NCBI GenBank assembly: GCA_024233215.1
Contig: JACKPW010000001.1
Span: 91,734-155,733 of the forward strand
DNA length: 64,000 nt
Origin: Verrucomicrobiales bacterium
Lineage (GTDB): Bacteria; Verrucomicrobiota; Verrucomicrobiia; Limisphaerales; J093
Reading direction: 5' to 3'
Numbering within the stretch: the stretch's first letter is position 1; every line of letters begins with the position of its first letter. The position numbers and the translations under genes were made by a program. Of the stretch, positions 16,782 to 51,300 are shown piece by piece. The notes under the pieces were generated by a model, which did no database searches, was not told the origin of the DNA, and saw nothing but the letters and a program-made list of their open reading frames with translations.

Positions 16782-16794
16782 CTCCGAACAACTC

Positions 16795-16948: not shown

Positions 16949-16966
16949 TAACCCTCCTTCCACGAA

Positions 16967-17407: not shown

Positions 17408-17417
17408 AGGGCGAACC

Positions 17418-21024: not shown

Positions 21025-21043
21025 ACCGGACCTTACGCCCGCA

Positions 21044-22780: not shown

Positions 22781-22800
22781 CTCACATCCTTACAGGGGAG

Positions 22801-22955: not shown

Positions 22956-23111
22956 ATTGAATCGATGCCTCGAAGATTGTCCGAAAACTCCCAGAACCAC
23001 GTAGCCGACGTGAGGAGGCTGATTCACACCGCTCAGACCACGGGTGGTCCATGGTCTTGAGCCTCCTCACGTCAGCAGCCACGGTTTCTTAAACTCCCTC
23101 TCGAAACCATC

Positions 23112-24635: not shown

Positions 24636-24685
24636 CAAGCCGGGGTTGGGATTCCACCGACATCGCTGATTACATTTGTCAAGTC

Positions 24686-26047
24686 ATGCGAATGCCCCTC
24701 CCTCTCTTCAGGCTGAACCGTGGTGCCGGCTCTCCCTGTGGGGTGCCGGCTGGAAACTCAGCGCGACAAGGTCTCAACAGCCCACGAGGGCGAGGCGCAC
24801 ACCTGGTCCGGGGGGTGCTCCTGGCAACCGTTGCGTTGCTGCCGGTCACGGGGCAGGCAGCCGACGAAGGCGGCTTTCCCTACATCCTGCCGATGTCCAA
24901 GCCCGCCCGCCCGCTGAGTGCGGCGATGGAGCGGCTTTACGACGACTATTCCGCCCCGACTCCGGAATCGAACGAACTCTACTCCACCTTCAAATTCACG
25001 CCCTTGGAAGGGCTCGACTACCACGATGGCGACGGGACCATCTCCCGCCGCGACCCCTCCAAGGTCATTCGTGCCAACGGCAGGTATTATGTCTGGTACA
25101 CGCATCGCCAGACATCAACGCCGCCGCGTGGAGCTGAACTCGGCACGGACACCGTGCCGTCCACCGATTGGGACCTGGCGGAAATCTGGTACGCCACCAG
25201 CGAGGACGGATTCCACTGGGAGGAGCAGGGGGTGGCGGTTCCTCGCCCGCCCAAGCCCCATCCGGGTTGGCGTTCCGTTTCGACCACCGACATCCTGATC
25301 TGGAAGGGAAAGTACTACCTGTACTACCAGGGCTTCCTGGAAATGTCGGGCCGGCGGGGCGATGACTGTCCGGTGGCGGTATCCGTGGCGGATTCGCCCG
25401 ACGGACCCTGGGAGGCGATGAACCGGATCGTGATCCCCAACGGTGCGCCGGGGGAGTGGGATCAGCACTCCATCCACGATCCGTATCCGCTCGTGTACCA
25501 GGGGCGCATCTACCTCTATTACAAGTCGGACTTCAACAATGCGTCGCCCCACGTGCGGGGGCACGGGTTGGCAATTGCGGACGATCCGCTCGGCCCGTTC
25601 ACGAAACACCCGCTGAACCCGATCATGAACTCGGGCCACGAGACCACGTTGTTCCCGTTCCGGCAGGGGATTGCCGCCTTCGCGATCCACAACGGGCTTG
25701 AGCATAACACCATACAATACGCCCCCGACGGCGTGAACTTCCGGATCGCCGCCGTTTCCAGCCTGATGCCCGTGGCGGCCGGCCCCTATGTGCCCGACGC
25801 GTTCACTGACACCAAGGACGGCCGCGGCATCACCTGGGGCCTCTGCCACATCACCGCCGTCGGCCCCCCGGACAAGCGCTACAGCATCCTGGCCCGGTTC
25901 GACTGCGACCTGAGCCGCGACTGGGACGATCCCCGGATGAAGCAGACCGACCTCTTCCTCAAACCGGAGGAGTACTTCTCCCAGGGCCTCTGGCGCAACC
26001 AACGCGAACGCATCGAACGTGCGAATCGCGAAGCCCTTGGCGAATAG
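24686..26047 (+). CDS. five-bladed beta-propeller glycoside hydrolase (GH43/GH117-like)
   Basis: RRDPSKVIRANGRYYVWYT (typical GH43-type DP motif). Repeated blade motifs WYATSEDGFHWEE, KGKYYLYYQG, GRIYLYYKSD. Start uncertain. Confidence 0.6.
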   Translation: MRMPLPLFRLNRGAGSPCGVPAGNSARQGLNSPRGRGAHLVRGVLLATVALLPVTGQAADEGGFPYILPMSKPARPLSAAMERLYDDYSAPTPESNELYSTFKFTPLEGLDYHDGDGTISRRDPSKVIRANGRYYVWYTHRQTSTPPRGAELGTDTVPSTDWDLAEIWYATSEDGFHWEEQGVAVPRPPKPHPGWRSVSTTDILIWKGKYYLYYQGFLEMSGRRGDDCPVAVSVADSPDGPWEAMNRIVIPNGAPGEWDQHSIHDPYPLVYQGRIYLYYKSDFNNASPHVRGHGLAIADDPLGPFTKHPLNPIMNSGHETTLFPFRQGIAAFAIHNGLEHNTIQYAPDGVNFRIAAVSSLMPVAAGPYVPDAFTDTKDGRGITWGLCHITAVGPPDKRYSILARFDCDLSRDWDDPRMKQTDLFLKPEEYFSQGLWRNQRERIERANREALGE

Positions 26048-28860: not shown

Positions 28861-30612
28861 ATGCACTCGCGATTTCTGCAAGGCACACTCGCCCTCATCG
28901 CCGGCGCGATGATGGGAGGGACCTCCTCGGTCGGGGCCGACGCCGTCCGGTTCGATCCCGTGATTCGGGACATCGAGGGATGGACCGTGGAGGTGGATCC
29001 GGCATTGCTCGAGGGGGAACATGCGGAGGAGGGGCGACGCGCACTCACGATGCTGGCGAACCACCTTCAGCGGATCAGCATCCTCGTGCCGGAGGAAGCG
29101 CTTGCCCGCCTCAAACAGATCGGGATTTGGATCGAGCGCAGCCATCCCCGTCTGAAGGCGATGCAGTATCATCCCAGCAAGGAGTGGCTGGTGGAGCATG
29201 GACACGATCCGCGCCTTGCCAGGAAGGTGCACATCACCCACGCGCGGGAGTTGCTGTCGCGTGAGCAGATGCTGAAGCATCCGGCCGTGATTCTCCATGA
29301 GCTGGCCCACGCCTATCACGATCAGGTCCTGGGCTTTGACAATCCGGAGATTCTCGCGGCCTACGAGCGGGCCAAGGCCGCCGGCAGCTACGAGAACGTT
29401 CTGCTCTACACCGGAGAGCGGGTGCGGCATTACGGCCTGACCGATCACAAGGAGTATTTCGCGGAGGGCACGGAGGCCTACTTCTATCGAAACGACTTCT
29501 ACCCCTTCGTTCGAGCGGAACTCAAGGAACACGATGCGGCGCTACACGATCTGCTCAAGCAGATCTGGGAGGATGAGAGTCTTCAACAGCCGTTGTTCGT
29601 CAGCGGTCAGGACGGTTATCACACCTACCGCATTCCGGCGCTGGCGGTGACCACGAACCGGACGCTGCTCGCCTTTTGCGAAGGGCGGCAGGGCGGTCGG
29701 GGCGACAGTGGAAACATCGACCTGCTGGTGAAGCGTTCCACTGACGGAGGTCGGACCTGGAGCCCGCACCAGGTGATCTGGGACGACGCCGGCAACACCT
29801 GTGGCAATCCGTCGCCGGTAGTGGACGAGTCGACCGGGACGATCTGGCTCCTCATGACGTGGAATCGTGGCGACGATCACGAAAGCCAGATCATTGCGCA
29901 AACGAGCCGGGACACGCGCCGCGTTTTCGTAACGCGATCCGTTGATGATGGGCGGACCTGGGCTGCGCCCGAAGAGATCACCGGATCGGCGAAACTTCCG
30001 AACTGGACCTGGTATGCCACCGGGCCGGGCGCGGGAATCCAACTGCGGAACAGCGACGCGCGCGGTCGGTTGGTGATTCCCTGCGATCACATCGAGGCGG
30101 GGACGAAGCGCTACTTCTCGCACGTCATCTATTCCGACGACCACGGTCGGACCTGGAAACTGGGGGGCACCACGCCGCAGGACCAGGTCAACGAGTGCGA
30201 GGTGGTCGAACTCAAGGACGGGCGCCTCCTGCTCAACATGCGCAATTACGATCGCTCGAAGCATCAACGTCAGGTTGCGTTCAGTGAGGACGGCGGGCTG
30301 ACTTGGAAGAGTCAGCGTTTCGATGTTGCGCTGGTCGAACCGATCTGTCAGGCGAGCATCCGCCGTTGTGGCGACGTCATTCTCTTTTCCAACCCGGCCA
30401 GCGAGAAGAGCCGCGTGAACCTGACCGTGCGGCTGAGCGACGACGAAGGCCTGACCTGGCAGGCGGCACGCGCCCTGTGGGCCGGACCGGCCGCGTACTC
30501 CGACCTGGCCGATCTCGGCGGTGGTCGGGCTGCCTGTCTCTACGAACGCGGCGACACCCAACCGTACGAGACCATCACCTTCGCGAGCTTCGGTCTCGGT
30601 TGGCTGCGGTGA
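28861..30612 (+). CDS. secreted two-domain protein: N-terminal HExxH zincin-like domain fused to GH33 sialidase/BNR-repeat beta-propeller
   Basis: In-frame ATG 28861 with signal peptide. HELAHAYH plus downstream E ([10 protein letters not shown]). Then YRIPAL (sialidase RIP motif) and five Asp-box/BNR repeats ([40 protein letters not shown]). Confidence 0.75.
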
Positions 30613-30913
30613 ACCCCACGCAACGGTGGATTCGCGGAAGCCCTGAAGATGGAGCGGGGACGGCTCGTCCCCGGCATGGGGCTTGGCGGAGCGGGGGGCA
30701 ACGGGCTGTAGGCTCTCGGACTCAGGGATCCGATCCGGGGCTCTCCCCGGCTCCACGACTCCCCGCATTTTGTATTGGTGCGGTTCTTCGCCATTTGGTA
30801 ACAGGAGGGCGACAAGTTATCAGCCCTTCGGCCGCCCCGGGAGCCCGTCGCTCCGATCCGGAAGGTTGGGGAGGGCTGGAACCCGTTGGGCATCGAAGCA
30901 CAGGCACAGGCTT

Positions 30914-33088
30914 ATGTTGGAAATCTTCCTTTACGTCGTCGGAGGCATTGTGGCGGTCCTGTTCGTCTCCGTCTTCCTGGTCTGCATTCGCAAGATCCAG
31001 CCCGGTCGGGCCGGCGTGAAGACCGGTTGGGGCGGCATCAAGGTGTCCTTCGACTACATGATCCGCCTGCCCCTGCTGCAGACCTATCACATCGTCGACA
31101 TCTCGGTGAAGAAACTCGAGATCTCGCGCAAGGGAAAGGACGGTCTGGTCTGCAAGGACAACATCCGCGCCGACATCACGGTCGCCTTCTACATCCGGGT
31201 GGAGGCCACGGAGGAGAGCGTCCGGAAGGTCGCCCAGATGCTGACGCCCGAACGGGTGTCCGACATGGACAAGCTGCGCGAGTTGTTCGAGGCCAAGTTC
31301 TCGGAGGCGCTCAAGACCGCGGGCAAACAGATGGAGTTCCACGAGTTGTTCACGGAGCGCATCAAGTTCCGCGACCGGATCCAGGACACCATTGGCAAGG
31401 ATCTCGACGGCTTCCTGTTGCAGGACGTCGCCATCGATTATCTGGAGCAGTCCCCGCTCGAGGAGCATGATCCCAGCAACGTGCTCGATGCCGAGGGCAT
31501 CAAGAAGATCACGCAGATCACGCAGCGCGAACGGGTCATTGCCAACGAACACACCCAGCGCGCCGCCGTCCAGATCGAGAAGGAGAACGCCGACGCCGAG
31601 ATCGCCAAGCGCGAGCAAAAGCGCCGGAACGAGGAGGACTCCGCCAAGCAGCAGCGCGCCATCACCGAGGTTCAGGCCAACGAGGAGGCCGAGGCGCGCA
31701 AGGTGATTGAGGTCCGTCGCATGGAGGTGGAGGGCAAGCGCATCGAGACCGACGAATCCATCCGCCTCCGTACCGAGGACATGAACCGCGCCGTCCAGGA
31801 ACGCGAATACACCGTTCGCAAGGAGAAGGAGCGGTTGGAGCAGGAGGCGGTCCAGGAAGGGGAGGAGGCCCGCGTCCGTCGCGAACGCACCGTCTCACTG
31901 GCGGACATGGACAAGGAGGTCAAGGTGGCCGAGGCCGCGGTCGAGGTGGAACGGAAGCGCGCGATTGTGGTGGCCGAGCAGAAGGCCGTGGTCCAGCAGG
32001 AGGAGGAGAAGCTGAACATCGAGGCGGAGATGACGGCGAACCGCGTTCGCGAGGTCACGTTGATCGAGGCCGACATGAACGCCAAGAAGGCCCAGGTCGA
32101 GAAGGTCGTGGCCGCCGAGGCGCAGAAGGATGCGGACCGGCACCTGGCCGAGGCCGAAAAGATCAAGGCGGTCGTGGCCGCCGAGGCCGGTCGGGAAGCC
32201 GCGCTACGCGAATCCGAGCGCATCCAGACCCTGGCCGATGCGGAGGCGAAGGCCTCGGACAAGAAGCGCCACGCGATGGAACAGGAAGCCGAGGGGTTGG
32301 CCGCGCAGGAGGCGGCACCGGGTTTGGCGGAGGCCCGCGTGATCACCGCCAAGGCGGGCGCCAAGAAGGCGGACGCGGAAGGCGTGCGCGAACTGGGACT
32401 GGCGGAGGCCGACGTCATCAAGGCGAAGGGCACTTCGACGGCCGAAATCACGGAGCAGCAGGCCGAGGCCGAGGCCGAGGGGGTGAAGGACAAGGAACTG
32501 GCGACCGCTGCCGGCATCGAGGCCAAGGGCCTGGCCGAAGCCAGGGGCATCGAGGAAAAGGCGAAGGCGATGAAGTTGCTCCAGGCCGCCAGCCAGCAGC
32601 ACGAGGAGTTCCGCCTCAAGCTGGCGAAGGAACGCGACGTGGATCTGGCCGCGCTCAACGTGCAACGGGAGATCGCCAAGGCGCATTCCACCGTGGTGGG
32701 CGAGGCCCTCAAGCACGCCAACATCGACATCGTCGGCGGCGAGAACGACTTCTTCGAGAAGATCGTCCGCTCGGTCGGCAACGGGAAATCCGTGGACCGG
32801 CTGCTCGAAAACAGCCGGGCGCTGCGCGACGTCAAGAACACGTTCTTCACCGGCGACCGGGAACAGCTCAAGTCGCAGTTGCAGCAGTGGGCCCGGGATT
32901 TCAACGTCGGTTCCGAGGACATCAAGAACCTCACGGTGGCGGCGTTGCTGGCGAAGTTCATGGCATCGACCGACGACAACGTCTTGAAGTCGCTGCTGGA
33001 GTCTGCCCGGGGAATGGTGCAGGAGGCCGGGTTGGCGGATCTCAAGGCTTCCGTCCTGTTGGAGGACAAGAAACCGGCGAAGGCCTGA
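30914..33088 (+). CDS. flotillin-like SPFH/band-7 membrane protein with long Glu/Ala/Lys-rich coiled-coil (~724 aa)
   Basis: In-frame ATG 30914 (MLEIFLYVVGGIVAVLFVSVFLV, N-terminal TM). SPFH core (GWGGIKVSFDYMIRLPLLQTYHIVDISVKKLEISRKGKDGLVCKDNIRADITVAFYIRV). ~450 aa of EAxK-type heptad-rich flotillin-domain sequence. Confidence 0.85.
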   Translation: MLEIFLYVVGGIVAVLFVSVFLVCIRKIQPGRAGVKTGWGGIKVSFDYMIRLPLLQTYHIVDISVKKLEISRKGKDGLVCKDNIRADITVAFYIRVEATEESVRKVAQMLTPERVSDMDKLRELFEAKFSEALKTAGKQMEFHELFTERIKFRDRIQDTIGKDLDGFLLQDVAIDYLEQSPLEEHDPSNVLDAEGIKKITQITQRERVIANEHTQRAAVQIEKENADAEIAKREQKRRNEEDSAKQQRAITEVQANEEAEARKVIEVRRMEVEGKRIETDESIRLRTEDMNRAVQEREYTVRKEKERLEQEAVQEGEEARVRRERTVSLADMDKEVKVAEAAVEVERKRAIVVAEQKAVVQQEEEKLNIEAEMTANRVREVTLIEADMNAKKAQVEKVVAAEAQKDADRHLAEAEKIKAVVAAEAGREAALRESERIQTLADAEAKASDKKRHAMEQEAEGLAAQEAAPGLAEARVITAKAGAKKADAEGVRELGLAEADVIKAKGTSTAEITEQQAEAEAEGVKDKELATAAGIEAKGLAEARGIEEKAKAMKLLQAASQQHEEFRLKLAKERDVDLAALNVQREIAKAHSTVVGEALKHANIDIVGGENDFFEKIVRSVGNGKSVDRLLENSRALRDVKNTFFTGDREQLKSQLQQWARDFNVGSEDIKNLTVAALLAKFMASTDDNVLKSLLESARGMVQEAGLADLKASVLLEDKKPAKA

Positions 33089-33745
33089 TTGCTTGTGGTT
33101 GTGCCCACCCAGGCGGGATCAGTGGTTCGGTGGCTGAAGTCCCGGCTTCGGCACGGGGGGCCAGGGAGGTTCGGCGCAACCTTCGGAGCCCTGTTGGGTT
33201 TGGCCGTTGTCGTGGTGGGGTGTTCGGGATCGGGTGGCGAGGACGCCGCCGACATGTCGAAGACCACTGAGGCGACTGAAAGCGACCTTACGACCAAGGT
33301 TTTCGAGCGGGACACGGACGGGGATGGCAAGCCTGACTTTCGCATGGAGACCTTCCTCCGAGGGGGGCGAAAGGTCTTGGTGCTCACCAGCAAGCCCGAT
33401 CAAAAGGGGGGTATGATCGTTCGGACGAGGTCCTACTTGGTGGGTGGAAACAGCGTCTTCACGGAGGCGGACGAGGATGGGGACGGCGTCTTCGAGAGGT
33501 TGGTTGCCTGGCTTCCACAGACCAATGTTGTTGAGGTGTTTGTTCGCCGGCCGGACGGGACAGTGCGTCCGGCCGGAACGAGGGTGGTTGAGCTGTATGA
33601 GGAGCAACTGTCCGCGATGGACGACTTCTTTGAGGAGGTGTTCGAAAGAGGCGCCGATCTTGTTGACTCGGAGGACCTCGGGGAGTTGTTGCACAAGGCG
33701 CAGAAGCGGATTCAAGACGCCGAGGCTGAGAAGAGGCGACAGTAG
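33089..33745 (+). CDS. small lipoprotein (lipobox VVGC), acidic, function unknown
   Basis: Starts 1 nt after the flotillin stop (TTG/GTG start candidates 33089-33150). LGLAVVVVGCSGSGGED lipobox. Asp-rich calcium-binding-like DTDGDGKPD, DEDGDGVFE. Confidence 0.5.
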   Translation: MLVVVPTQAGSVVRWLKSRLRHGGPGRFGATFGALLGLAVVVVGCSGSGGEDAADMSKTTEATESDLTTKVFERDTDGDGKPDFRMETFLRGGRKVLVLTSKPDQKGGMIVRTRSYLVGGNSVFTEADEDGDGVFERLVAWLPQTNVVEVFVRRPDGTVRPAGTRVVELYEEQLSAMDDFFEEVFERGADLVDSEDLGELLHKAQKRIQDAEAEKRRQ

Positions 33746-33770
33746 GTAGTCACCGGAGTCCACGTAAGTT

Positions 33771-36700
33771 ATGGCCGAAGTCCCTGGACAACCGAATCTC
33801 CCCGAGCAGGAAACCTCCGTCGCTCCCGTCCCCGGAAAGACGGCGACTCAAGCGGCACCGGCTCTCGGCGACGCGACCTACGAGATCATCCGGCAACGGT
33901 TGGACACCCACGCGGCCACGTTGCGCGAACGGCTGAGTCGGTTGGATGCGCGGCGGCAGGAGGTCTTTGGCGCCATCGAATACAAGCTGCTGCAGGCCGA
34001 TCGTATCGTCACGGCCAACAACTGTGTGCCCCGCGACATGGTGCCGCTGGCGGGCGGGCGCTTCCTGTTTGGTTTCAACGTGCGTTTCGGGCTCAAACAG
34101 GAGATCGATTTGGCCGACGTGTTCGCGATCTACCACCGCGACGAAACCACCGGCGCCTGGAAGGAGGCCGGGTTGGACCCGCTGCAGGACGCCGCGTTCC
34201 TCCGCGATTTCAAGCGTCTGTACAACGTCTATGCGAAGACTGTTTTCCGGAAGTTCTCGGTGATCGACGGTCAGCTTTACCTGGTGTTCGGCGTGGGCGC
34301 CGGCGTGGAAGACATCGCCGTCTTCAAGTGGGCTTACAACGACGGCGAACCGCGTTATGTCGATGGTCGGGCGGAGGCGGACTTTCGGCGGGTCGGGTTT
34401 CCGGCGGCGCACGCCTTTCGGTGGCAGATTCCGGATCGCGAGTCCTTCCGTTACGGCGACCACCCGCATCTCTCGATCGAGGACCGGGTCTTCGTGGAGT
34501 GCATCGGGGGCGACCTGACGATCAAGGTGGAGGACAACACGGCGAGCGGTGAGGGCATTTACGAGGAACCGGTCGAGGACCGATACCAGAAGGTGGATGA
34601 CGCGGAAGTGGCCTACGCGGCGTTGGACCATCTGATCCTGCTGAAGATTCGTCCCTACAAGGAAACGGTCACCCGCTACTTCATCTTCAACGAGAAGCTG
34701 CGGCAGGTGGTGCGGGTGGATTCAATCGGCGAATCCTGCGTGCGGTTGCCGGAGGATCAAGGGTTGGTGTTCCCGGACGGCTACTACCTGTCGACGGGTG
34801 AACTGAAACGGTTCGAAGGGCGAACCGTTGGGATGCTCATCGAGCGCGTGATCCCGGCACCGAACGGCGAGGACACGTTGTTCGTGTTCTACAACCGGAC
34901 GAGCGGCGAATACGTGTTGATGCCCTACCGGTTGATCCAACAACGGATCGAGGAGCGGCTGACCTGCCAGGGCTTTTCCCTGTTTCCCAACGGTCATTTG
35001 CTCTCCTTTCGCGCGGAACCGGAGGCACAGAAACACCATCTCATCCAGCTTCGCCAGACCCCGTTCCACCAAGCCGGTCACGAGCCGCCCGGCCAGAAGG
35101 AGGCGTTCCTTTACCAAGTGGGCAACAAGGACGTGGTGCGCGCCCTTTCGGATGGCACCGAAATCCTGACCCTCCTGCGCAAGCCCGATCCTTACGCCGC
35201 GCTCTACACCGACCTCGTCAAACGCTGTGAAGCGGTGCTCGATTCCTACCCGTGGCTCGCGTCGCCGGATGGGTTCGGAGTCGATGAGGCCCTGCGGGCG
35301 GTCCGGGGCGCGGCGGACAAGGCGGTTGCCGAATTCGACAAGGTGCGGCGACTTCGGGCGGAAGCGGCGCGGCAGGTGAAGGAAATCCGCACGCGTTGTC
35401 AGGACCGGTTTGACCTGATCCGGCGCGCCGATTTCAAGAGCCTCAACGACTTTGTCCAGCACCTGACCGCACTCCGGCAGTTGCGGGGCGAGTTGATCAC
35501 GCTGCGCGAGGTGCGGTACATCGATGTCGCGGCGCTTGACGCCGTCGAGGAGACGGTCACGAAACAGGGCGAACACCTCTCGGCGGCCTGCGTGAAGTTC
35601 CTGTTGCGTCCGGAAGCGCTCGAACCGTATCGGAAGGAGGCGGCCTCGCAGTTGGCGGCGGTCGATTCGGTGACCAAGGTCGCCGAGGGACGCGACCTCG
35701 AGAAGACCGTGGCGAAGACCGGTGGCGAACTCGAGATGCTCATCGAAATCGTCAACGGGTTGAAGATCGAGGATGCCACCGAAACGACGCGGATCATCGA
35801 CAGCATCACGGCGGTCTTTGCGACGTTGAACCAGGTTCGGGCGGCGCTGAAGCAGCGACTCAAGAGCCTGGCGGCCGCCGAAGGCGCGGCCCAGTTCGAT
35901 GCCCAGATGAAGCTGCTGGGGCAGTCGGCGGCCAGTTACCTCGACCTGTGCGACACCCCCGCCCGTTGCGACGAGTACCTCAACCGGATCTCCGTCCAGA
36001 TCGAGGAACTTGAAGGTGCATTCGCGGATTTCGAGGAATACACCGTCCAGCTGGCCGAACGGCGCACCGAGCTTTACGAGGCGTTCGAGCAACGCAAAGT
36101 CGCCCTCGTCGAGCAACGCAACAAACGGGCCAACGCCCTCATGACCGCCGCCGAGCGGGTGTTGAAGGTCATTCGCAACCGGTTGGCCGGCTTCCAGACG
36201 CTCGACGCGATCAACGCCTACATGGCGTCGGACCTGATGATCGCCCGGGTCCGGGAGACCATCGACCAGCTGCTCGCTCTTGAGGATTCGGTCAAGGCGG
36301 ACGATTTGCAGGGCCGGCTGAAGAGCGCCCAGCAGGAGGCGGTCCGGCAGTTGAAGGATCGCCAGGAGTTGTTCGTCGGCGGGCAAGACGTCATCAAGCT
36401 CGGGCGCCACCATTTCAACCGGAACACCCAGCCCCTCGACCTCACCATCGTCCAGCGCGACGGCGTCCAGCACCTGCACCTGACGAGCACCAAGTATTTC
36501 GAAGCGATCAACGATCCCGGGTTCAATGCCACGTGGGCGGTCTGGGACCAGGAACTGGTTTCGGAAAACGCCGACGTCTATCGAGCGGAGTACCTCGCCT
36601 GGCAATTGCTGAAGCAAACCGATGGGAGCGCGGGCGGCCCGGCCGCAGCAGCCGGGGAGCCGTTTGGCACGAAGTCGGCGGAACCGCCGGACAGGCGCAC

Positions 36701-39317
36701 GGGGAGGGAGATGCTGCAGCGTTCCAGGGGACCGTCGGGCGGGCCGCCCGACGGGACAGGCGGGCCGCCTGTGCTCCCGGAGGAGTCACATCTCGCTCAG
36801 GTACAGGCATTCGCCGCCACCCGGTATCAGGAGGGTTACACCAAGGGGGTGCACGATCTGGACGCCGCGCTGATTTCCCGCGCGTTGCTGTCGACCCATG
36901 CCGCCTTGGGACTTGCCCGTTACCGTCCCGCTGCCCGGGGCTGCGCCGCCGTCTTCTGGCACCGTTTCTGTCCGGAGAACGTGAAGACCCTTTGGACGCA
37001 CAAGCTTGCCGCCTTCGCGGAGCGTAACCGGTTGTTCCCCGGCGACCCCACCCAACGCGACTACGTCATGGCACTGGCGAGACTGCTCAAGGGATTCGCC
37101 GAGGGCACCGGGCTCTTTCCGACTGCGCTCGCGGACGAGGCGGGCGGTTATCTTTTTCAGCAGCTCACCGCCGGCGGGCCGTTTGTGGTCAGCCGGGAAG
37201 GGGACCGGTTGCTGGCCGGGTTCCGCCAGCACTTGGTACAGCAGGATCGCGAGACGGCATTCACGGAATCGCGCCAACGCCTCGCCGATCATCCGGAGAG
37301 CGAACTCGAACTGGTCCGGGACTGGGTGCGCGGTTTTCTCCTCAACCGGCCGGAAACCCAGCGCCACCTGGATGAGGTGGTCGGCGTGCTGTTTTGCGGC
37401 GAGGCGTTCGAGGGCCGGCCGGTGGAAGCCGACAGCGCGTGCGAGATCGAGGGGCTGAAGGGGAGCCATCGCCGGATTCAGGACGGGCGCTACCATTTCG
37501 ATTACCTCGACTTTAGGGATCGCCTCGAGCATTTCGCATCGACCGTCCAGCCGGAGTTCGAGCGGTTCCATGCACTCAAGCAACAGCTCCTGCAACGCGA
37601 ACGCGAACGGCTGCGGCTCGAGGAATTCTCGCCGCGCGTCCTCACTTCCTTCGTCCGGAACCAGCTGATCGACGAGGTCTACCTGCCGCTCATCGGCGAC
37701 AACCTGGCCAAACAGGTCGGTGCCGCGGGCGATCGGAAACGCACCGACCTGATGGGCCTGCTCCTGCTGATCTCCCCGCCGGGCTACGGCAAGACCACGT
37801 TGATGGAATACATCGCCAACCGGCTGGGCATCATCTTTGTCAAGGTGAACGGACCGGCCCTGGGCGATCGGGTGACTTCACTGGATCCGGCCGACGCGCC
37901 CAACGCCGCGGCCCGCGAGGAGATCGAGAAACTCAACCTTGCCCTGGAGATGGGGGACAATGCGATGCTCTACGTCGACGACATCCAGCATTGCAGTCCG
38001 GAGTTTCTCCAGAAGTTCATCTCGCTGTGCGATGCGCAGCGGAAGATCGAGGGCGTGTGGCGGGGGCGTTCGCGCACCTACGATTTGCGCGGCCGGAAGG
38101 TGGTCGTGGTCATGGCCGGGAATCCCTACACCGAAAGCGGACAGAAATTCCGCATTCCGGACATGCTGGCGAACCGCGCCGATACCTACAACCTCGGCGA
38201 CATCATCGGCGGCAATCCGGCCTGGTTCAAAGCCAGTTACCTCGAGAACGCCGTCACGTCGAACGCGCTCCTTGCACCACTGGCCAACAAGAGCCAGAAC
38301 GACGTCCGGCATTTCATTCGACTGGCCGAGACCGGCGAGCGCGATCTCAGCGGCTTTGACGGGAGCTACTCGGCGCAGGAGGTCGACGAGATCCTGTCCG
38401 TGATGAAGAAACTGGTGCAGCTCCGCGAAGTCATCCTGCGGGTCAACCAGGAGTATATCGCCTCCGCCGCCCAGGCCGACGAGTTCCGCACCGAACCGCC
38501 GTTCAAGCTCCAGGGATCCTATCGGAACATGAACCGGCTTGCGGAGAAGGTGGTGCCGGTCATGACCGACGAGGAAGTGAGCGCGCTGGTTCTGGAACAC
38601 TACCGGGGCGAGGCGCAGACGCTCACGACCGGGGCCGAGGCGAATCTTCTGAAGTTCAGGGAACTCGTGGGTGCGCAGACCGAATCCGAGGCCTCGCGTT
38701 GGCAGGAGATCAAGCGCACGTTCAATCGAAACCAACGTACGGGACGCGTGGACCCGTCGGATTCGGTCGGTCGCGTGGTGGCGCAGTTGGCCGGTTTCCA
38801 GGACGGTCTCGAGTCAATTCAGAACACATTGGCGCAACGCCTTACGGAGACGCGCCCGCCGGTGACCCTGGATCTGGGGCCGGTGGCGGAAGGGCTTGCC
38901 GGCATTCGTGCGGTCGTCGAGCAGCAACTTGCCGGCGTCAACCAGGCCACGCAGCCGGAGGTTCGTCCTGATCCCGGGGAACTGGCACGCCAGTTGAGCG
39001 AGGGACTCCACGCCTTACGTTCCGACCTCAGCCGCGCGATCACCGAGGTTCACACGGGCGCGATGGCGGAGAAAGTCACCAGCCTGTCGCACGAAATGGA
39101 GATGTTGCACAGCACGCTGGCCACTTTGAAGGACGTCGCGGCCCGGCAGCGCGATTATCTTCGGAACGTCGAGGCCATGCTGGTCGAGCAGGCCCGGAAG
39201 GGGGCGGTTGAATTTGAGTTGACCCAGGAGATGCTGACGAACGAACAGGCGTTCCTGGACAAGTTCCATGAGATGCTCGGCGAAAGGGAAGCGCCGCCAC
39301 CACCGGCGGCGACTTGA
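33771..39317 (+). CDS. giant (1848 aa) multidomain protein with C-terminal-third MoxR/AAA_5-type ATPase core; function unknown
   Basis: Walker A LISPPGYGKTT (~37767-37799). Walker B NAMLYVDDIQH (~37965-37990). Sensor/arginine region VVVMAGNPYTESGQKFRIPDMLANRADTYNL, analogous to the MoxR ATQNP…LDRF region. >1300 aa upstream has a beta-rich N-domain and long helical regions. Starts 25 nt after the lipoprotein stop. Confidence 0.75.
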   Translation: MAEVPGQPNLPEQETSVAPVPGKTATQAAPALGDATYEIIRQRLDTHAATLRERLSRLDARRQEVFGAIEYKLLQADRIVTANNCVPRDMVPLAGGRFLFGFNVRFGLKQEIDLADVFAIYHRDETTGAWKEAGLDPLQDAAFLRDFKRLYNVYAKTVFRKFSVIDGQLYLVFGVGAGVEDIAVFKWAYNDGEPRYVDGRAEADFRRVGFPAAHAFRWQIPDRESFRYGDHPHLSIEDRVFVECIGGDLTIKVEDNTASGEGIYEEPVEDRYQKVDDAEVAYAALDHLILLKIRPYKETVTRYFIFNEKLRQVVRVDSIGESCVRLPEDQGLVFPDGYYLSTGELKRFEGRTVGMLIERVIPAPNGEDTLFVFYNRTSGEYVLMPYRLIQQRIEERLTCQGFSLFPNGHLLSFRAEPEAQKHHLIQLRQTPFHQAGHEPPGQKEAFLYQVGNKDVVRALSDGTEILTLLRKPDPYAALYTDLVKRCEAVLDSYPWLASPDGFGVDEALRAVRGAADKAVAEFDKVRRLRAEAARQVKEIRTRCQDRFDLIRRADFKSLNDFVQHLTALRQLRGELITLREVRYIDVAALDAVEETVTKQGEHLSAACVKFLLRPEALEPYRKEAASQLAAVDSVTKVAEGRDLEKTVAKTGGELEMLIEIVNGLKIEDATETTRIIDSITAVFATLNQVRAALKQRLKSLAAAEGAAQFDAQMKLLGQSAASYLDLCDTPARCDEYLNRISVQIEELEGAFADFEEYTVQLAERRTELYEAFEQRKVALVEQRNKRANALMTAAERVLKVIRNRLAGFQTLDAINAYMASDLMIARVRETIDQLLALEDSVKADDLQGRLKSAQQEAVRQLKDRQELFVGGQDVIKLGRHHFNRNTQPLDLTIVQRDGVQHLHLTSTKYFEAINDPGFNATWAVWDQELVSENADVYRAEYLAWQLLKQTDGSAGGPAAAAGEPFGTKSAEPPDRRTGREMLQRSRGPSGGPPDGTGGPPVLPEESHLAQVQAFAATRYQEGYTKGVHDLDAALISRALLSTHAALGLARYRPAARGCAAVFWHRFCPENVKTLWTHKLAAFAERNRLFPGDPTQRDYVMALARLLKGFAEGTGLFPTALADEAGGYLFQQLTAGGPFVVSREGDRLLAGFRQHLVQQDRETAFTESRQRLADHPESELELVRDWVRGFLLNRPETQRHLDEVVGVLFCGEAFEGRPVEADSACEIEGLKGSHRRIQDGRYHFDYLDFRDRLEHFASTVQPEFERFHALKQQLLQRERERLRLEEFSPRVLTSFVRNQLIDEVYLPLIGDNLAKQVGAAGDRKRTDLMGLLLLISPPGYGKTTLMEYIANRLGIIFVKVNGPALGDRVTSLDPADAPNAAAREEIEKLNLALEMGDNAMLYVDDIQHCSPEFLQKFISLCDAQRKIEGVWRGRSRTYDLRGRKVVVVMAGNPYTESGQKFRIPDMLANRADTYNLGDIIGGNPAWFKASYLENAVTSNALLAPLANKSQNDVRHFIRLAETGERDLSGFDGSYSAQEVDEILSVMKKLVQLREVILRVNQEYIASAAQADEFRTEPPFKLQGSYRNMNRLAEKVVPVMTDEEVSALVLEHYRGEAQTLTTGAEANLLKFRELVGAQTESEASRWQEIKRTFNRNQRTGRVDPSDSVGRVVAQLAGFQDGLESIQNTLAQRLTETRPPVTLDLGPVAEGLAGIRAVVEQQLAGVNQATQPEVRPDPGELARQLSEGLHALRSDLSRAITEVHTGAMAEKVTSLSHEMEMLHSTLATLKDVAARQRDYLRNVEAMLVEQARKGAVEFELTQEMLTNEQAFLDKFHEMLGEREAPPPPAAT

Positions 39318-39331
39318 GGACGCTGCAGAGG

Positions 39332-39486
39332 GACCACGAATGAACACGAATGGACACCAATCCGAACGGAGGAGGCTTCGAAGGGCGGCCTTGAAGGACC
39401 TCGCCGGCATCGGAAGCCCGGGTTGCTGTGGCGTTGACCTTGAACCCCTCGCTCCCATTCGTGTCCATTCGTGTGGATTCGTGGTC
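39332..39486. repeat. intergenic palindromic element, copy E
   Basis: Left GACCACGAATGAACACGAATGGACACCAATCC (39332-39363). Right CCATTCGTGTCCATTCGTGTGGATTCGTGGTC (39456-39486), an imperfect reverse complement. 14 nt after the giant ATPase stop. Confidence 0.7.
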
Positions 39487-39515
39487 ACGGCAGGAGTCGT
39501 CAGATCGTGCACAAC

Positions 39516-40385
39516 ATGAAGAAGTTCATTCAGAAGATCCAAAGACTGGGGCAGCGAGCCACCGAGCTGAAGGAGGCCGTCCAACGCGTGCCGCCCAAGG
39601 TCGCCGGTATCCGGAACGCCGTGGTCCTCACCGGCGGGCAACTCAGGGAACTGGGCGTCCAGGTGCAGAACAGCATTGCCGGGCTCAAGGCGGATCGAGA
39701 GGACGATCTTCTCAACGCCCTGAGGGAGGTCAACGACAGCGCGGGCATCATCCGGCAGGCGGGCTTCGAGCTTGGCGGGATTGATTTCGAGCTCAGCCCG
39801 GTCCAGCGCCTGATCGTTCACCTGCAGCGACGCGAGGATGTGCGGACCGCCGTGCTGGAATCCTTGCGCGACGCGTCGAGTGCCCGGCCGACCGTGCATG
39901 CCCTGTTGACTTCCCTGGTCCGGGCCGAGGAAACGGCCGACAGCGTGCACATAACCGATCTCTCCTACCACACGCTGGTGATTCACATTGGCCCCGCCCC
40001 CACGGTGCGCCTTTGCTGGCGGCCTGCGCCATCCCTGGCGCAGGGCGCCAACGCCAGCGTGCTGGCGACTGCGTCGACCGTTCCGGCGAGCCCTTCGGAA
40101 GCCCCGGACCGGCCCTCGTTCTTCGGTGAGAACCCGCCCGCCACGGATGGGTTCACGAGCCGTGAAGCCGTGGCTGAGGATGAGCCGCCCTCCCCGGCTT
40201 CCTCCGAGCCGCCGGCACCCCGGACCGGGCCGACGCCGGAACCGGTGAGGGTTGTCAGGCCGGCTTCGCCGCCCCCGCCCCCTCCACGCGAGGTGATTGG
40301 GAAGAAGGAGGCCCCACCCGTCTGGAACAGCGACGCGCTTCAGCGGTTCAAAACCATGCCCAAGGCATCGAAGTACCGCCGGTAA
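39516..40385 (+). CDS. hypothetical protein: ~190-aa helical N-domain plus Pro/Ser/Ala-rich disordered tail
   Basis: ATG 39516 (MKKFIQKIQRLGQRATELKEAVQRV…). Protein-like composition. The antisense alternative (39015..40568 -) is Arg-rich junk. C-terminus PASPPPPPPREVIGKKEAPP. Confidence 0.45.
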   Translation: MKKFIQKIQRLGQRATELKEAVQRVPPKVAGIRNAVVLTGGQLRELGVQVQNSIAGLKADREDDLLNALREVNDSAGIIRQAGFELGGIDFELSPVQRLIVHLQRREDVRTAVLESLRDASSARPTVHALLTSLVRAEETADSVHITDLSYHTLVIHIGPAPTVRLCWRPAPSLAQGANASVLATASTVPASPSEAPDRPSFFGENPPATDGFTSREAVAEDEPPSPASSEPPAPRTGPTPEPVRVVRPASPPPPPPREVIGKKEAPPVWNSDALQRFKTMPKASKYRR

Positions 40386-40690
40386 AGGGGACATTCGGCA
40401 ACCGGTGGTTCCCACGTTCGAAGAAAGCTGCCGTTGTCGCGACGAACCGGTGCTCGCCGAATGCCTTGCTGTCCGCACGCGGACTCGGCGGTCCGCGCTC
40501 CTGTTCTCCTGGTGTTGTCTTCGTGCTGGAGCGTCAGCCGGAGCAGGCCCGGCGCCTGAACAACACAATCATGGAACTGACGGGCTCCGCTCGGCCCGCG
40601 GTCTCGAAGCCTGTGGACGATGGGCTCACTGCGATCCATCAACGCCAGTCCTGGGTTGCCGCCGGGGGGCGGTGCGGGCATGAATAGGCC

Positions 40691-41341
40691 ATGACGGCTG
40701 GCATGGCGGCGACGCTTCTTGTGTTCACCGGCGGGTTCATCGTGATGATCCTGGAGATTGTCGGGGCGCGGTATTTGTCGGGAGAATTCGGGGGTTCCTT
40801 CTACGTCTGGGTGAGCCAGATCGGTGTGGTCATGATTGCGCTGGCGGCCGGTTACTACCTCGGTGGCGCGCTCGCCGATCGCTGGCAATGCCTGCGGCGG
40901 CTGGCCTGGCTGCTGGTGCCCGCAGGCCTGCTGGTGATGGGAGTTCCCGGTTACGCCCCGCCGATCCTGGAGCGGATCGTGCTCCGGCATCCGGCCGAGT
41001 TGCCTGTGCCATTGCTGTGGAAGAAACTCGATCCCGCGCTGGGCAGCGCCGTGGTTTTCCTGCTGCCCTGCCTGGTGCTGGCGATGCTGACGCCCTATCT
41101 GATTCGTCTGAGCGCCCGCGGTGTGGCCCACCTGGGTCGGCTCAGCGGTCGCATCATCGCCTGGAGCACGCTGGGGAGCATCGCCGGGGTGTTCGTGGCG
41201 GGGTATGTGCTCATCGATCTGCTGCGGCTCTCGACGATCTTCCGGCTCACGGGGCTGGCGATGGTGGGGCTGGGCCTGTTGTGCCTCCCACTGGATCGCG
41301 CCTTTGCATCCGGACCCGTTCCGGTGGATGATGAGCCCTGA
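40691..41341 (+). CDS. polytopic membrane domain protein (N-terminal module of spermidine-synthase-like membrane proteins)
   Basis: 6 predicted TM helices (MTAGMAATLLVFTGGFIVMILEIVGA…). Stop overlaps the start of the next ORF in another frame. Confidence 0.6.
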   Translation: MTAGMAATLLVFTGGFIVMILEIVGARYLSGEFGGSFYVWVSQIGVVMIALAAGYYLGGALADRWQCLRRLAWLLVPAGLLVMGVPGYAPPILERIVLRHPAELPVPLLWKKLDPALGSAVVFLLPCLVLAMLTPYLIRLSARGVAHLGRLSGRIIAWSTLGSIAGVFVAGYVLIDLLRLSTIFRLTGLAMVGLGLLCLPLDRAFASGPVPVDDEP

Positions 41342-42341
41342 AATGCACACGCCCCGTTCTGTTGTCGCTGCTGCGAATGTCCGCTTCACGCCGCGGGTCG
41401 GTTCCCTGCGGTGCGCACCGATCTGGGGTCGACGAATCGCCCCCGCCGGAATCCTGCTGATCCTGGGCGGACTGTTGCTCCTGCCGGTCGCGCGCGTCAC
41501 GGGCGGCGTGATTTACGAAACGACCTCCGCCTACCACCGGATACAGGTCGTTGATCAACGGGGACTGCGGACCCTTAGTTTCAATGGGACCGAGGAGACC
41601 CGCATGTCCCTGGCCAACCCCTTGCAGGGCCATTTCCAATACATCGAATACTTCTTCATGCCCTGGTGCTGGAACACGAACCTGACCAACGTTCTCATGG
41701 TGGGGCTTGGCGGCGGCAGCGTTCAGCGGTTGTATGCGGCCCACTGTCCGAATGTCAGCATCGATACCGCGGAGATCGACCCGACGGTGAGGGAGGTGGC
41801 GGAGAAGTATTTCCGGTATGAGCCGGGTCCCCGGCAGCGGGTGTTCGTGGAGGACGGCCGGGTGTTCCTGCGCCGGAGCACGACGCGCTATGGTGCGATC
41901 GTGATGGACGCCTACCGGAAGGGGCGCTACGGATCCGGCATTCCGGCTCATCTGGCCACGCAGGAGTTCTTCAAGCTGGCCCGGGAACATCTGACTGATG
42001 ACGGAGTGCTGGCCTACAACGTGATCGGCAGTGTGGGGGGGTATCGGGCCGAGATCGTGGGGTCGATCTACCGCACGATGCAGACTGTGTTTCCCCACGT
42101 GTACGTTTTCCCCGCACCGGACAGCATCAACGTGGTGATGGTGGGCACCGTGGCGGAGTATCCGGTCACGATGGCGTGGCTGCTCGATCGTGCCCGGGCC
42201 GTCTCCGAGTCCGGAGCAGTCGCACTGCCGACTCTGACCCAAAGGGTGCGGGCGTTCCGAGCCCTGCCTCCGCCGAATTTGCCCCAATGTCCGGTGCTGA
42301 CCGACGACTATGCGCCGGTGGACGGTTTGCTGGGGGAATAA
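41328..42341 (+). CDS. spermidine-synthase-like (PABS/class-I methyltransferase fold) protein with one N-terminal TM helix
   Basis: Start candidates ATG 41328/41331/41344. ILLILGGLLLLPVA (TM), then VIYETTSAYHRIQVVD, VLMVGLGGGS (nucleotide-binding GxGxG), DAY…G. Confidence 0.65.
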   Translation: MMSPEMHTPRSVVAAANVRFTPRVGSLRCAPIWGRRIAPAGILLILGGLLLLPVARVTGGVIYETTSAYHRIQVVDQRGLRTLSFNGTEETRMSLANPLQGHFQYIEYFFMPWCWNTNLTNVLMVGLGGGSVQRLYAAHCPNVSIDTAEIDPTVREVAEKYFRYEPGPRQRVFVEDGRVFLRRSTTRYGAIVMDAYRKGRYGSGIPAHLATQEFFKLAREHLTDDGVLAYNVIGSVGGYRAEIVGSIYRTMQTVFPHVYVFPAPDSINVVMVGTVAEYPVTMAWLLDRARAVSESGAVALPTLTQRVRAFRALPPPNLPQCPVLTDDYAPVDGLLGE

Positions 42342-48350: not shown

Positions 48351-51300
48351 ATGACCACCTCCATGTCATCGTTCGTTCAAAGAAACTCGATTCGTTCCCT
48401 CGCCCGGATGGGCGTCTCCTCCGGTCGCTGTGGCCCGGCCTGCCTGGCGATGGTGGGCCTGGTCCTGGTGGCGTTCCCCATCGCGCATGGCGCCGCCATT
48501 GCCAACTGGAACAAGGGCACCACCCCCGGCACCTACAACGAACCCGCGAACTGGTCGCCGGCCGTGGTGCCGCTCAACGGAGGCGGCAACACCTACGTGG
48601 TGGAGATTCCCGCCAATGCCCAGGTGAGTTACGACGTCAGCGGCACGGGGCAGGTGGACTCCTTCCGGTTGGCCCAGGCGGCGACGTTCACCCTCGATGG
48701 CACGAGGGAATTCGCCGTGCAGGGCATCTCGATCATCAACGGGCCGGTCACCGCCACCGGCGCCGGCGCGGTCTTCGAATCGGTGCTCTCCCCGGCCACC
48801 CTTAGCGGTTATGCCACCCTGAATGCCTCCGCTGGCGGCAGAATCAGCGTAACCGCGCCGGGATTCGAACTCCCGTCCGACTGGCGCGCGAGTCGGTCGT
48901 TGTTGATCGCCGACGGGGCCGGTTCGGAAATTGACCTGGCGACGTTGAAGTCACTGACGGTCTATGGCGGTCACAGTGGTGCCTGGGACTACCGGGTGAC
49001 GGCGAGCAACGGGGGCGTCATCGACCTCGGGGACCTGACCACCGCCACGGGACCGCGCACCGACGACTTTTCGAACGACGACTGGCTTTCCTTCCGGCAG
49101 GAGACCGGGGGGACCATTGACCTGGGCAGCCTCTTCAAGGTGCAGCGTCGGACGCGGTTCATCTCCGACGCCAACTGGACCATGCCTGCGCTGGAGGTGG
49201 TGGAGATGGGCTATTTCCAGCCCGGCCCGGCGGTGACCTACGATCTGCCTGAGTTCTTCCGGATGGAGTCCGGCACCCTGAGCGTGCCGGATACCGCGAT
49301 CATCAACGCCCCCAAGCTGACCGCGATCCGTGGATCCACCATCGATGTCGCGGCCGGGGGACAGCTGAATGCGGGGCTCGTGTCGGATATCAGCGGCAGT
49401 GTGGTGACGCTGGACCCGGGCGAGACGTTGCAGTTGGGGACGGTGGATGTCATCGACCAGATGAGCTTTGTCGCCAAGGCGACGCCGACCTTCGGCTTCA
49501 GCGCGACGAGTTACACCCTGCCAGAGGACTGGCGTGCGAGCCGGAAGTTGTTCGAGGCGGATGGAGCCGGGGTGGCGCTCCACATCGACAGCCTGAACAC
49601 CTTGACCGTTGGAGGCGGGTGGAGCGGAGCCTGGGATTATTCCGTCCGCGCCAACAATGGGGCCACGCTGGGCCTTTCCGGGCTGACCAGCGCCATCGGG
49701 CCTCGGACCGACAACTACAGCAACGACGATTGGTTGAGCTTCTACTTCCAGAACGGGGGGCAGATTGACCTGTCCTCCCTGGCGAGCGTTTCACGCAAGG
49801 TCCGCTTTCTGCCGGACTCCGGCCAGTCGGTCACCCTGCCTGCGCTGGAGGATGTTGACGGTGCGTACTTCAACATCCTGAGCGGGTCGACGTTGAGTGC
49901 CCCGTCCCTGATTCGGGCCAACAACGCCCGTTTCGACGTGGACTTCGCCGGATCGATCAGTGCCCCGGCGATGACGGAGATGCGCGGGACCTCGCTCAAT
50001 GTCCAGCCCGGGGGCACGTTCAACGCCCCTGCGTTGGCGGATGTTTATGCCAGCTCGCTGCCGCTGGGTGGCGGGGGCAGTGTGACCCTCGGGCCGCTCA
50101 GCATGATTGACGGTGCGACCTTCGTCATGACGGGCCCGTCGCCCCTGACATTCACGGCCACCAGCTATTCCATCTGGGAGGATTACCGTGCTTCCCGGCA
50201 GATCTTCCATGCGTCCGGTGCCGGCGCCGTGCTCAACCTCGCCTCCATCCAGACCATTTCCACCCCGGGGGGCTGGGGTGGCGGGTGGGACTACTCCATC
50301 CTCGCCGAGAACGGCGGGGTGGTTGACCTCTCGGGCCTGACCCACGCGACCGGGCCCCGGACCGATGCGTACGACAACGACGACTATCTCAGCTTCCATC
50401 TGAGGAGCGGCGGGCAAATCGATCTGTCGTCTTTGGCGACGACCGACCAGCGGGTCCGCTTCACCACGGAGGAGGACTGGACGCTGCCCAGTTTGGAAAC
50501 CGCGAACCGGGCGTATTTCTATCCTGGGTCCGGGACCACGCTGAACCTGCCGGCATTGGTTACCCTCGGCGCGGGAGTGATGGACGTGCCCTTCAGCACC
50601 ACCGTCAATGCGCCCTTCGCCACCGCTATTCGCTCCACGAGCATCACGGTGGCTCCGGGTGGCCGACTGGATGCACCGCAGGTGAGCGACCTGACCTGGA
50701 GTGCCATTGAAATCAACGCCGGTGAGGAGTGTCTCCTCGGCGACATCAGCGTGTTCGACGGCCTCAGCCTGGTGGCGTATCAGACGCCGGCCTTCACATT
50801 CTCGGCAACCTCGTACGAACTGCCCGAGGATTACCGGGCAAGCCGGACGCTGTTCCATGCCGAGGGGGGCGGGGTCGTTCTGGACCTGAGTTCGTTGAAA
50901 TCAGTCCTGGTTCGGGGCGGTTGGAGCGGAGCTTGGAACTACCCGTTCACGGCCAAGAACAGCGCCTTCGTGGATCTGTCCGGCCTGGAGACCGTCGTGG
51001 GCGGGCGCACGGATACCTACAGTGCCGACGACTGGGTGTCGCTGCGCACGGAACTCGGGGGTCGGATGACCTTGGGCGACCTGACCCTGTCGCGAGTGTC
51101 CCGGGTGCAAATCGTGGATTCCTCGGCGTCGATTCAGGGGAGTTCGCTGACCTTCCAGGCGCCGGCGCGGCTTGAGGTGACCGATTTCGGAACGCTTGAG
51201 CTGACCCGGGGATTGAGCTTCAACAACACCGACGAAAGCCAGATCTCCACGCACAACGGCATCGTGAAGTTCACGGGCGTCGGCGAGAAAACGCTGGAAG

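Follow-up and report, generated by a model that had tools for sequence, protein, structure and literature searches.

What does a bacterial protein of 1848 amino acids (aa) do when its ATPase core sits in the last third of the chain, behind about 1300 aa of other domains? The question is raised by a gene in a 64,000-nucleotide (nt) stretch of a Verrucomicrobiales genome (contig JACKPW010000001.1, positions 91,734 to 155,733 of the forward strand; here called the window), which is read as a single open reading frame (ORF):

33771-39317, forward strand: giant AAA+ ATPase gene of the DUF3686 family, one ATG-started ORF of 1848 codons plus stop

On the evidence below, this protein is probably a soluble cytoplasmic AAA+ remodeller of a membrane scaffold linked to flotillin and the phage shock protein (PSP) system. 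When 5.8 billion proteins were searched, it had more than 2,500 significant matches, and the best 120 of these are 63-87% identical to it over the full length, with 97-100% coverage for nearly all (64-87% identity for full-length homologues in Verrucomicrobiota); ORF 33771-39317 is therefore a real gene and no chance reading frame. A promoter and terminator scan over 30300-41000 gave a signal no better than that in shuffled sequence, so the operon boundaries used here rest on spacing and synteny only.

The most informative feature of the locus, which a first-pass annotation of the same letters had missed, is the gene upstream on the same strand:

30914-33088, forward strand: flotillin-type SPFH protein, 724 aa, counted from M78 of an ORF that opens at 30683

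This flotillin has one predicted N-terminal transmembrane helix, a Band_7/SPFH domain (PF01145, E 6.5e-11, within the N-terminal 278 aa), a long coiled coil rich in E, A and K, and a conserved C-terminal region; equivalent genes are named "flotillin family protein" or "SPFH domain-containing protein" in RefSeq. A distribution scan with one genome per species found a relative of the giant protein in at least 590 species, and locus counts given here refer to the best 80 loci among them. These are 43-67% identical to the query over aa ~30-1690 and come from Verrucomicrobiota, Planctomycetota, Bacteroidota, Desulfobacterota, Kiritimatiellota, Hydrogenedentota, Omnitrophota and Clostridia. In 73 of the 80 loci, an SPFH/flotillin homologue directly precedes the giant gene in the same orientation; in five of the other seven, the sequence ahead of the gene is shorter than 1.6 kb, so that flotillin is adjacent in about 97% of the loci with enough flanking sequence. 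A YqiJ/YuaF-like gene stands upstream of the flotillin gene in 47/80 loci, encoding an NfeD-type, 3TM membrane protein of about 225 aa with an acidic stretch, a C-terminal β domain and a weak YqiJ_N match; the Verrucomicrobial loci nearest to the window (L001-L008 and L081) do not have it. The giant gene is thus a genetically coupled partner in near-obligate synteny with flotillin and in frequent synteny with YqiJ and PspA. Because of the flotillin synteny, we consider that the protein probably remodels the scaffold and does not serve DNA repair.

The composition of the operon varies among lineages. In Bacteroidota it additionally holds a divergent HTH-S24 regulator, a CesT/YbjN-like gene and PspA (PF04012, 4e-41); the PspA and CesT/YjfI-like pair was found in 14/80 loci, all Bacteroidota, and on plasmid pQBR103 of Pseudomonas fluorescens SBW25. 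On that plasmid (locus L082, 84.4-97.6 kb), genes for YjfI, PspA, a rhomboid protein, DUF2491 and DUF350 are followed by DUF1190, glutathionylspermidine synthase, the YqiJ-like protein, SPFH and the "DNA repair ATPase"; the pQBR103 operon joins two published PSP operon classes in a genetically tractable host. The order is YqiJ-like, flotillin, AAA in Proteus mirabilis and flotillin, AAA in Streptomyces. This arrangement agrees with the work of Ravi et al. 2024 (mSystems, PMC11237479), who described a "β-propeller + coiled-coil + AAA-ATPase" protein in CesT/Tir-PspA-YqiJ/YuaF-Band-7/flotillin operons, listed "Betapropeller+Coiled-coil+AAA-ATPase" for Dokdonia in a supplementary table, found abbreviated operons (band-7/flotillin, YqiJ and sometimes the AAA+ ATPase) to be more widespread, and proposed a role in sub-membrane dynamics, grouping the system with PSP.

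The Bacteroidota and pQBR103 operons also bear on a second explanation, in which the protein would be a non-homologous analogue of Vps4 that depolymerizes or recycles PspA, with flotillin and YqiJ serving as a membrane platform only. PspA and the CesT/YjfI-like gene share the operon there, PMC11237479 places the system with PSP, and a 2025 review states that a Vps4-like regulator of PspA is apparently absent from bacteria (PMC7619361); in Bacillus subtilis the SPFH protein YdjI reportedly recruits PspA and is needed for its localization. PspA, however, is adjacent in a minority of loci as compared with the roughly 97% for flotillin, the 64-kb window holds no PspA gene, and the protein has no MIT-like domain. 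We regard a PspA-directed activity as an unlikely alternative.

How far the protein was already known is answered by its domain matches. Pfam PF12458 (DUF3686, "ATPase involved in DNA repair") covers aa 51-493 with E 2.6e-160, PF25472 (DUF7902) covers aa 615-698 with E 4.2e-26, and Pfam AAA, AAA_5, AAA_22 and RuvB_N match at aa ~1315-1456 with E 5e-6 to 7e-5; NCBIfam and PADLOC searches with the protein gave no informative family. A search for the DUF3686 domain returned 649 clusters at 50% identity out of 1.84 billion representatives. Since full-length members share a size of 1600-1930 aa and carry the domain almost always at the N terminus, DUF3686 proteins appear as one coherent family with a fixed architecture. 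A plasmid collection adds members from P. fluorescens SBW25 pQBR103, Proteus mirabilis, Vibrio, Photobacterium, Halomonas, Streptomyces, Nonomuraea and Deinococcus. The closest relative (L081), 86% identical, comes from a Verrucomicrobiales metagenome-assembled genome; taken with a G+C content of about 64% and with sulfatase and sialidase genes nearby, this assigns the window to the Verrucomicrobiota. By its sequence, then, the window protein classifies as an ordinary orthologue of a widespread, already catalogued bacterial family: Pfam and NCBI list the family, and its architecture and operon are published (PMC11237479). The first-pass annotation had held the layout to be unlike that of standard MoxR, McrB or midasin proteins and had said that its finding would fall if an existing family covered the full-length protein; with DUF3686, DUF7902, an NCBI name and the published architecture all in place, this is essentially the case, and the layout is not unclassified.

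The names attached to orthologues in NCBI and UniRef are "DNA repair ATPase", "AAA family ATPase" and "MoxR-like ATPase", the first being the NCBI label on thousands of full-length orthologues. That the protein is a DNA repair ATPase is favoured by this product name only, along with weak RuvB_N/RuvB matches at the P-loop region. Scores with the RuvB models, 20-23 bits, fall far below the cut-offs of 282-299 and reflect generic AAA+ similarity; no DNA-binding, nuclease or SMC/Rad50 ABC-type head domain was detected, and the ATPase is of the AAA+ and not the ABC type. Membrane proteins (flotillin, YqiJ-like, PspA) make up the conserved neighbourhood, with no repair genes among them, and a literature search found no support for the name. 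We give this role next to no credence, and as an evidence-based annotation DNA repair is effectively refuted.

What kind of machine the protein might be was addressed with AlphaFold2 models of its two halves, built from 37-sequence alignments, with a mean predicted local distance difference test (pLDDT) of 80.8 and 73.9, respectively. Together with domain matches and a 79-sequence alignment, the models divide the chain as follows:

aa 1-31, forward strand: disordered stretch (AlphaFold2 model)
aa 32-66, forward strand: helix (AlphaFold2 model)
aa 72-429, 33984-35057, forward strand: β-propeller, the core of DUF3686 (PF12458; AlphaFold2, mean pLDDT 80.8; Foldseek)
aa 446-867, 35106-36371, forward strand: helical-bundle/coiled-coil arm, containing DUF7902 (AlphaFold2)
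aa 615-698, nt 35613-35864, forward strand: DUF7902 (PF25472)
aa 875-912, 36393-36506, forward strand: small β domain (AlphaFold2 strands, lower confidence)
aa 951-1002, 36621-36776, forward strand: low-complexity G/P/A-rich linker (79-sequence alignment)
aa 1003-1290, 36777-37640, forward strand: orphan all-α domain directly before the ATPase (model pLDDT >90 for aa ~1030-1270)
aa 1291-1480, 37641-38210, forward strand: AAA+ α/β core (model and motifs)
aa 1481-1660, 38211-38750, forward strand: conserved helical lid region (conservation profile and model helices)
aa 1661-1848, 38751-39314, forward strand: variable C-terminal helical tail (long helices, low pLDDT)

The propeller, a partner-binding type of domain, is thus carried on a long helical arm; among single domains, Foldseek matches it most clearly to DCAF1 (7e-6), prolyl oligopeptidase and tricorn, i.e., propellers of the WD40 type and of peptidases. 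Helices in aa 446-867 are 14-58 residues long with pLDDT mostly 75-90 and form bundles, with no single continuous coiled coil. The small β domain is 53-57% identical to the window protein across phyla. The linker at aa 951-1002, with 73% gaps and 3% identity to the window in the 79 sequences, looks like an insertion specific to the lineage of the window. Within the tail, the first 50 aa show 11% gaps and 31% identity to the window, and aa 1701-1848 show mostly 48-67% gaps and about 10% identity across phyla. A hydropathy scan of the 1848-aa protein found no transmembrane segment, and Pfam, NCBIfam and PADLOC scans found no GTPase, nuclease or VWA domain in it. A second, degenerate AAA domain upstream of the core was considered and rejected, as aa 1003-1290 are modelled all-α.

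Most of what had been read from the letters about this layout holds. The 1848-aa ORF is there, and the quoted motifs lie where they had been placed (LISPPGYGKTT at aa 1333-1343, VDDIQH at aa 1402-1407, VVMAGNPYTE at aa 1446-1455 and RIPDMLANRADTYNL at aa 1461-1475), within a core that does fall in the last third, at aa ~1291-1480. The β-rich N-domain, the long helical region and the further domain ahead of the core were recovered and refined by the models; of the "coiled-coil-like" description, the helices at aa 446-867 stand, and one continuous coiled coil gives way to bundles. The described lack of GTPase, nuclease and VWA motifs agrees with the domain scans, and the protein is indeed far larger than standard MoxR, with no VWA partner nearby.

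A propeller followed by α-helices also recalls coat proteins, and the protein could be a coat-like or vesicle-shaping protein comparable to the PVC (Planctomycetes-Verrucomicrobia-Chlamydiae) protocoatomer or IFT-A, its AAA+ part only regulating coat assembly. The lowest Foldseek E-value for the N-terminal half is that of an IFT-A subunit (8.7e-7), clathrin heavy chain was matched as well, and the host belongs to the Verrucomicrobiota. The IFT-A match has a TM-score of 0.11, however, and such scores span 0.09-0.16, as expected of a generic propeller plus helices; single-domain propellers score equally, and with TM-scores of at most 0.16 we rejected the IFT-A/clathrin-like match as coat evidence. 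The long bundle and coiled-coil helices of the model form no α-solenoid, and the family is not confined to PVC bacteria. A coat function is in our view very improbable.

Whether the core is likely to work as an ATPase was judged from an alignment of 79 sequences from at least 8 phyla, in which the following elements are recognized:

aa 1335-1343, nt 37773-37799, forward strand: Walker A, SPPGYGKTT (motif)
aa 1399-1407, nt 37965-37991, forward strand: Walker B with flanks, MLYVDDIQH (motif)
aa ~1425-1438, forward strand: pre-sensor-1 β-hairpin (AlphaFold2 model)
nt 38106-38198, forward strand: sensor 1 N1451 and candidate arginine finger R1469 (motif)
aa 1581-1585, forward strand: lid stretch QGSYR, invariant, followed by N1586 (~99% conserved)

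All 79 sequences carry unchanged the Walker A SPPGYGKTT, the Walker B DDIQH, the sensor-1 motif MAGNP.TE and the segment PDML..R(1469)AD.YN.G. Across phyla, the identity of the AAA core to that of the window protein is 74-84%, and columns conserved to at least 95% make up 54% of the AAA core, 20% of the propeller, 14% of the helical arm, 5% of the α domain and 0% of the C-terminal tail. Resemblance to the "G-x-S-x-R" lid motif of MoxR makes R1585 a candidate for the sensor-2 arginine. Because the motifs are invariant in all 79 sequences, a pseudo-ATPase is rejected, and the degeneracy among homologues that the first-pass annotation had named as fatal to its finding does not occur; the family is predicted to be a catalytically competent AAA+ ATPase. 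In all 79 members, the Walker B pair is D-D (VDDIQH) and not the usual D-E.

The AAA+ fold of the core is certain; its pre-sensor-1-hairpin, MoxR/RuvB-like affinity is a best guess. Foldseek with the C-terminal half gave NorQ (6e-4), RuvB (1e-3) and CbbQ (1.8e-3), and a structural comparison placed NorQ first, with ClpB, Lon, RuvB and Vps4 within 1 Z unit. AAA_5 scores 27.0 bits (cut-off 22), PF00004 scores equally well, and the helix-2 insert is not evident in the model. Single-sequence and profile searches against the PDB matched the P-loop region of p97 and RuvB only (profile ~1e-6), which is too little for an AAA+ clade assignment, and the family profile retrieved no MoxR structure among solved structures. 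These comparisons bear on the possibility of a canonical MoxR maturation chaperone with a VWA partner, as in NorQ/NorD, CbbQ/CbbO and RavA/ViaA. NorQ and CbbQ rank with the closest structures, AAA_5 exceeds the Pfam cut-off, and the sensor-1, arginine-finger and lid motifs are MoxR-like; against this, the scores of ClpB, Lon, RuvB and Vps4 are nearly as good, the protein, with 1300 aa of N-terminal domains, has five to six times the size of MoxR, and neither the surroundings of the gene in the window nor the conserved neighbours include a VWA/MIDAS protein. The chance of such a chaperone we take to be slimmer still than that of a coat. The architecture and the MoxR-like flavour of the initial reading are kept, its unclassified layout is not, and the best guess is limited to an affinity with MoxR and RuvB, short of membership in the MoxR family.

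For a scaffold remodeller coupled to flotillin, the mechanism we propose is the following. The AAA+ modules would assemble into a ring, from which the propellers at the ends of the helical arms would bind the flotillin assembly (or PspA, or clients bound within it) on the cytoplasmic side of the membrane; energy from ATP hydrolysis would then drive assembly, disassembly or turnover of the scaffold in membrane maintenance or the envelope stress response. Functional analogies would be Vps4 acting on ESCRT-III, NSF acting on SNAREs and FtsH inside HflK/C cages. The data show the architecture, the invariance of the motifs, the synteny and the spread across phyla; we infer that a ring forms, what the substrate is and in which direction the scaffold is remodelled. 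More tentatively, and with the odds somewhat against it, the family might be the long-missing ATP-driven machine that puts together, dismantles or recycles flotillin (SPFH) cages and/or PspA (ESCRT-III) polymers. As part of that speculative extension, it might be a counterpart of Vps4/NSF built on a MoxR/RuvB-like, non-classical module whose propeller arms grip the scaffold, with the D-D Walker B conceivably tuning it toward regulated, switch-like hydrolysis.

Several observations weigh against a flotillin-linked remodeller. The link to flotillin comes from genomic data alone, and our literature search found no experimental study of any DUF3686-AAA family member. Loci L027 and L028, each with 10 kb of sequence ahead of the gene, have no adjacent SPFH gene, and within the 64-kb window there is neither a YqiJ-like homologue (tblastn, E 1e-3) nor a PspA or CesT homologue. 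The D-D Walker B may denote slow, regulated or switch-like hydrolysis as opposed to motor activity. Because the β2-α2 loop (NGPALG..VTSLDP), which occupies the pore-loop position, lacks an aromatic residue, classical polypeptide threading is doubtful for the family. Finally, model confidence for the AAA core is moderate, with the P-loop strand and the arginine-finger segment at pLDDT <50.

The other genes around the pair were then compared with those of the related loci. Two of them flank the giant gene:

33089-33745, forward strand: lipoprotein-like 218-aa ORF between the flotillin and AAA genes, with a hydrophobic segment followed by VVVGC
39516-40385, forward strand: downstream 289-aa protein, counted from M16 of an ORF that opens at 39471

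The 218-aa ORF has no Pfam, NCBIfam or PADLOC match and no homologue in 81 related loci; the closest relative is without it, having a flotillin-AAA gap of 83 nt, and the gap in other genomes holds unrelated insertions, e.g., DUF559 endonucleases and transposase- or toxin-antitoxin-like genes. Being conserved nowhere among related loci, the ORF was rejected as a component of the module. It contains two DxDGDG calcium-binding-like motifs.

The 289-aa protein likewise has no Pfam, NCBIfam or PADLOC match. It is 62% identical to the product of the gene right after the orthologue in the closest relative, and its homologues among the related loci are confined to 11 Verrucomicrobial ones, marking it, from sequence comparison, as a putative third component specific to the lineage of the window. 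The window accordingly represents a minimal Verrucomicrobial module of flotillin, AAA gene and 289-aa protein, without YqiJ or PspA. The C-terminal peptide of the 289-aa protein, PPVWNSDALQRFKTMPKASKYRR, is identical in L081. In the more distant loci L009, L011 and L012, the 289-aa homologue is on the opposite strand and adjoins a PLD/HKD-like gene, a neighbour that echoes the phospholipase D in PMC11237479. Another Verrucomicrobiales locus, L029, has two large ORFs after the module, at 15748-18897 (1049 aa) and 19838-24925 (at least 1695 aa), which are unrelated to the AAA giant.

In the flotillin partners, we noted a weak motif, G-[LI]-[AGS]-[DN], about 15 residues before the C terminus. It was considered as a candidate propeller-docking peptide and found unconvincing, the pattern being too weak.

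Further downstream in the window, two forward-strand ORFs in different frames, at 40691-41341 and 41328-42341, overlap by about 14 nt and match NF037959 ("fused MFS/spermidine synthase") over its residues 4-182 (N-terminal) and 276-480 (C-terminal), respectively; they look like a split or frameshifted gene, and the pair is not kept beside the module in relatives. Polyamine genes recur in PspA/flotillin operons (PMC11237479; pQBR103 locus L082). At 48351-54023 on the forward strand lies a repetitive, apparently secreted 1890-aa ORF with internal repeat units of about 230 aa.

Might the system instead serve anti-phage defence or another conflict, with the protein acting as a nucleoside triphosphatase (NTPase) in the manner of many large AAA+, STAND and MoxR-type proteins, as a sensor or an effector switch? 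It is a large multidomain NTPase whose β-propeller could be a sensor, copies are borne on megaplasmids (pQBR103 and plasmids of Hymenobacter and Streptomyces), and its coiled-coil region gives weak PADLOC matches to LmuB and PbeC. Those matches are at the level of composition (LmuB 4e-4, PbeC 5e-3; PADLOC-DB v2), and no match came from the flotillin, the 289-aa protein or the 218-aa ORF. Effector domains (nuclease, protease, TIR or pore-former) were found neither in the protein nor in its conserved neighbours, and the DUF3686 domain had zero matches among 50,697 phage records. Conservation of the AAA core at the level reported above is very high for a defence gene, the synteny is stable, and nearby genes in the window serve housekeeping or carbohydrate degradation. 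A defence role is improbable on these grounds.

For a Vps4-like regulator of the dynamic build-up and breakdown of flotillin microdomains and PspA assemblies in bacteria, the family is the obvious candidate because its ATPase motifs are intact and its synteny with flotillin extends across many phyla, and it occurs in tractable hosts, namely Proteus mirabilis, P. fluorescens SBW25 (pQBR103) and Streptomyces. The window adds one orthologue, leaves the database name "DNA repair ATPase" without foundation and documents the minimal Verrucomicrobial module.

Among known systems, Vps4/CdvC acting on ESCRT-III resembles the family in that the AAA+ protein is co-operonic with PspA in some lineages and may have a polymer-recycling role, as proposed here. 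It differs in that the window protein is homologous to it in the AAA+ fold only, lacks an MIT domain and appears to lie outside the classical clade, and in that the PspA linkage of the family is found in a minority of loci and is absent from the window. Proteins of the MoxR family (NorQ, CbbQ and RavA; AAA_5/AAA_3) measure about 300 aa as compared with about 1850 aa for the window protein, and have a D-E Walker B where the window protein has D-D; no VWA partner is found near the window gene. In HflK/C-FtsH, an SPFH cage is reported to house an AAA+ machine (Ma et al. 2022), and a flotillin cage structure is also available (PMC11260169). In both HflK/C-FtsH and the prohibitin-m-AAA protease pair, an SPFH scaffold is joined genetically and functionally with an AAA+ ATPase at the cytoplasmic membrane, which resembles the gene pairing in the window. 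FtsH is a membrane-anchored, classical-clade AAA+ protease; the window protein is predicted to be soluble, has a propeller and helical arms in place of a protease domain, and would associate with a cage only by inference.

Nearest of all is the family of PMC11237479. The window protein departs from its other members in the G/P-rich insert at aa 951-1002 and a longer variable C-terminal tail; the locus departs from other operons in the non-conserved lipoprotein-like ORF between the genes, in the lineage-specific 289-aa downstream protein and in lacking, like the rest of its lineage, adjacent YqiJ-like, PspA and CesT genes, which are optional features. Members from other phyla are nonetheless 43-67% identical to it over about 1650 aa, and they share with it the order of propeller, helical region and C-terminal AAA+ core, the same Pfam signature and a flotillin gene immediately upstream on the same strand.

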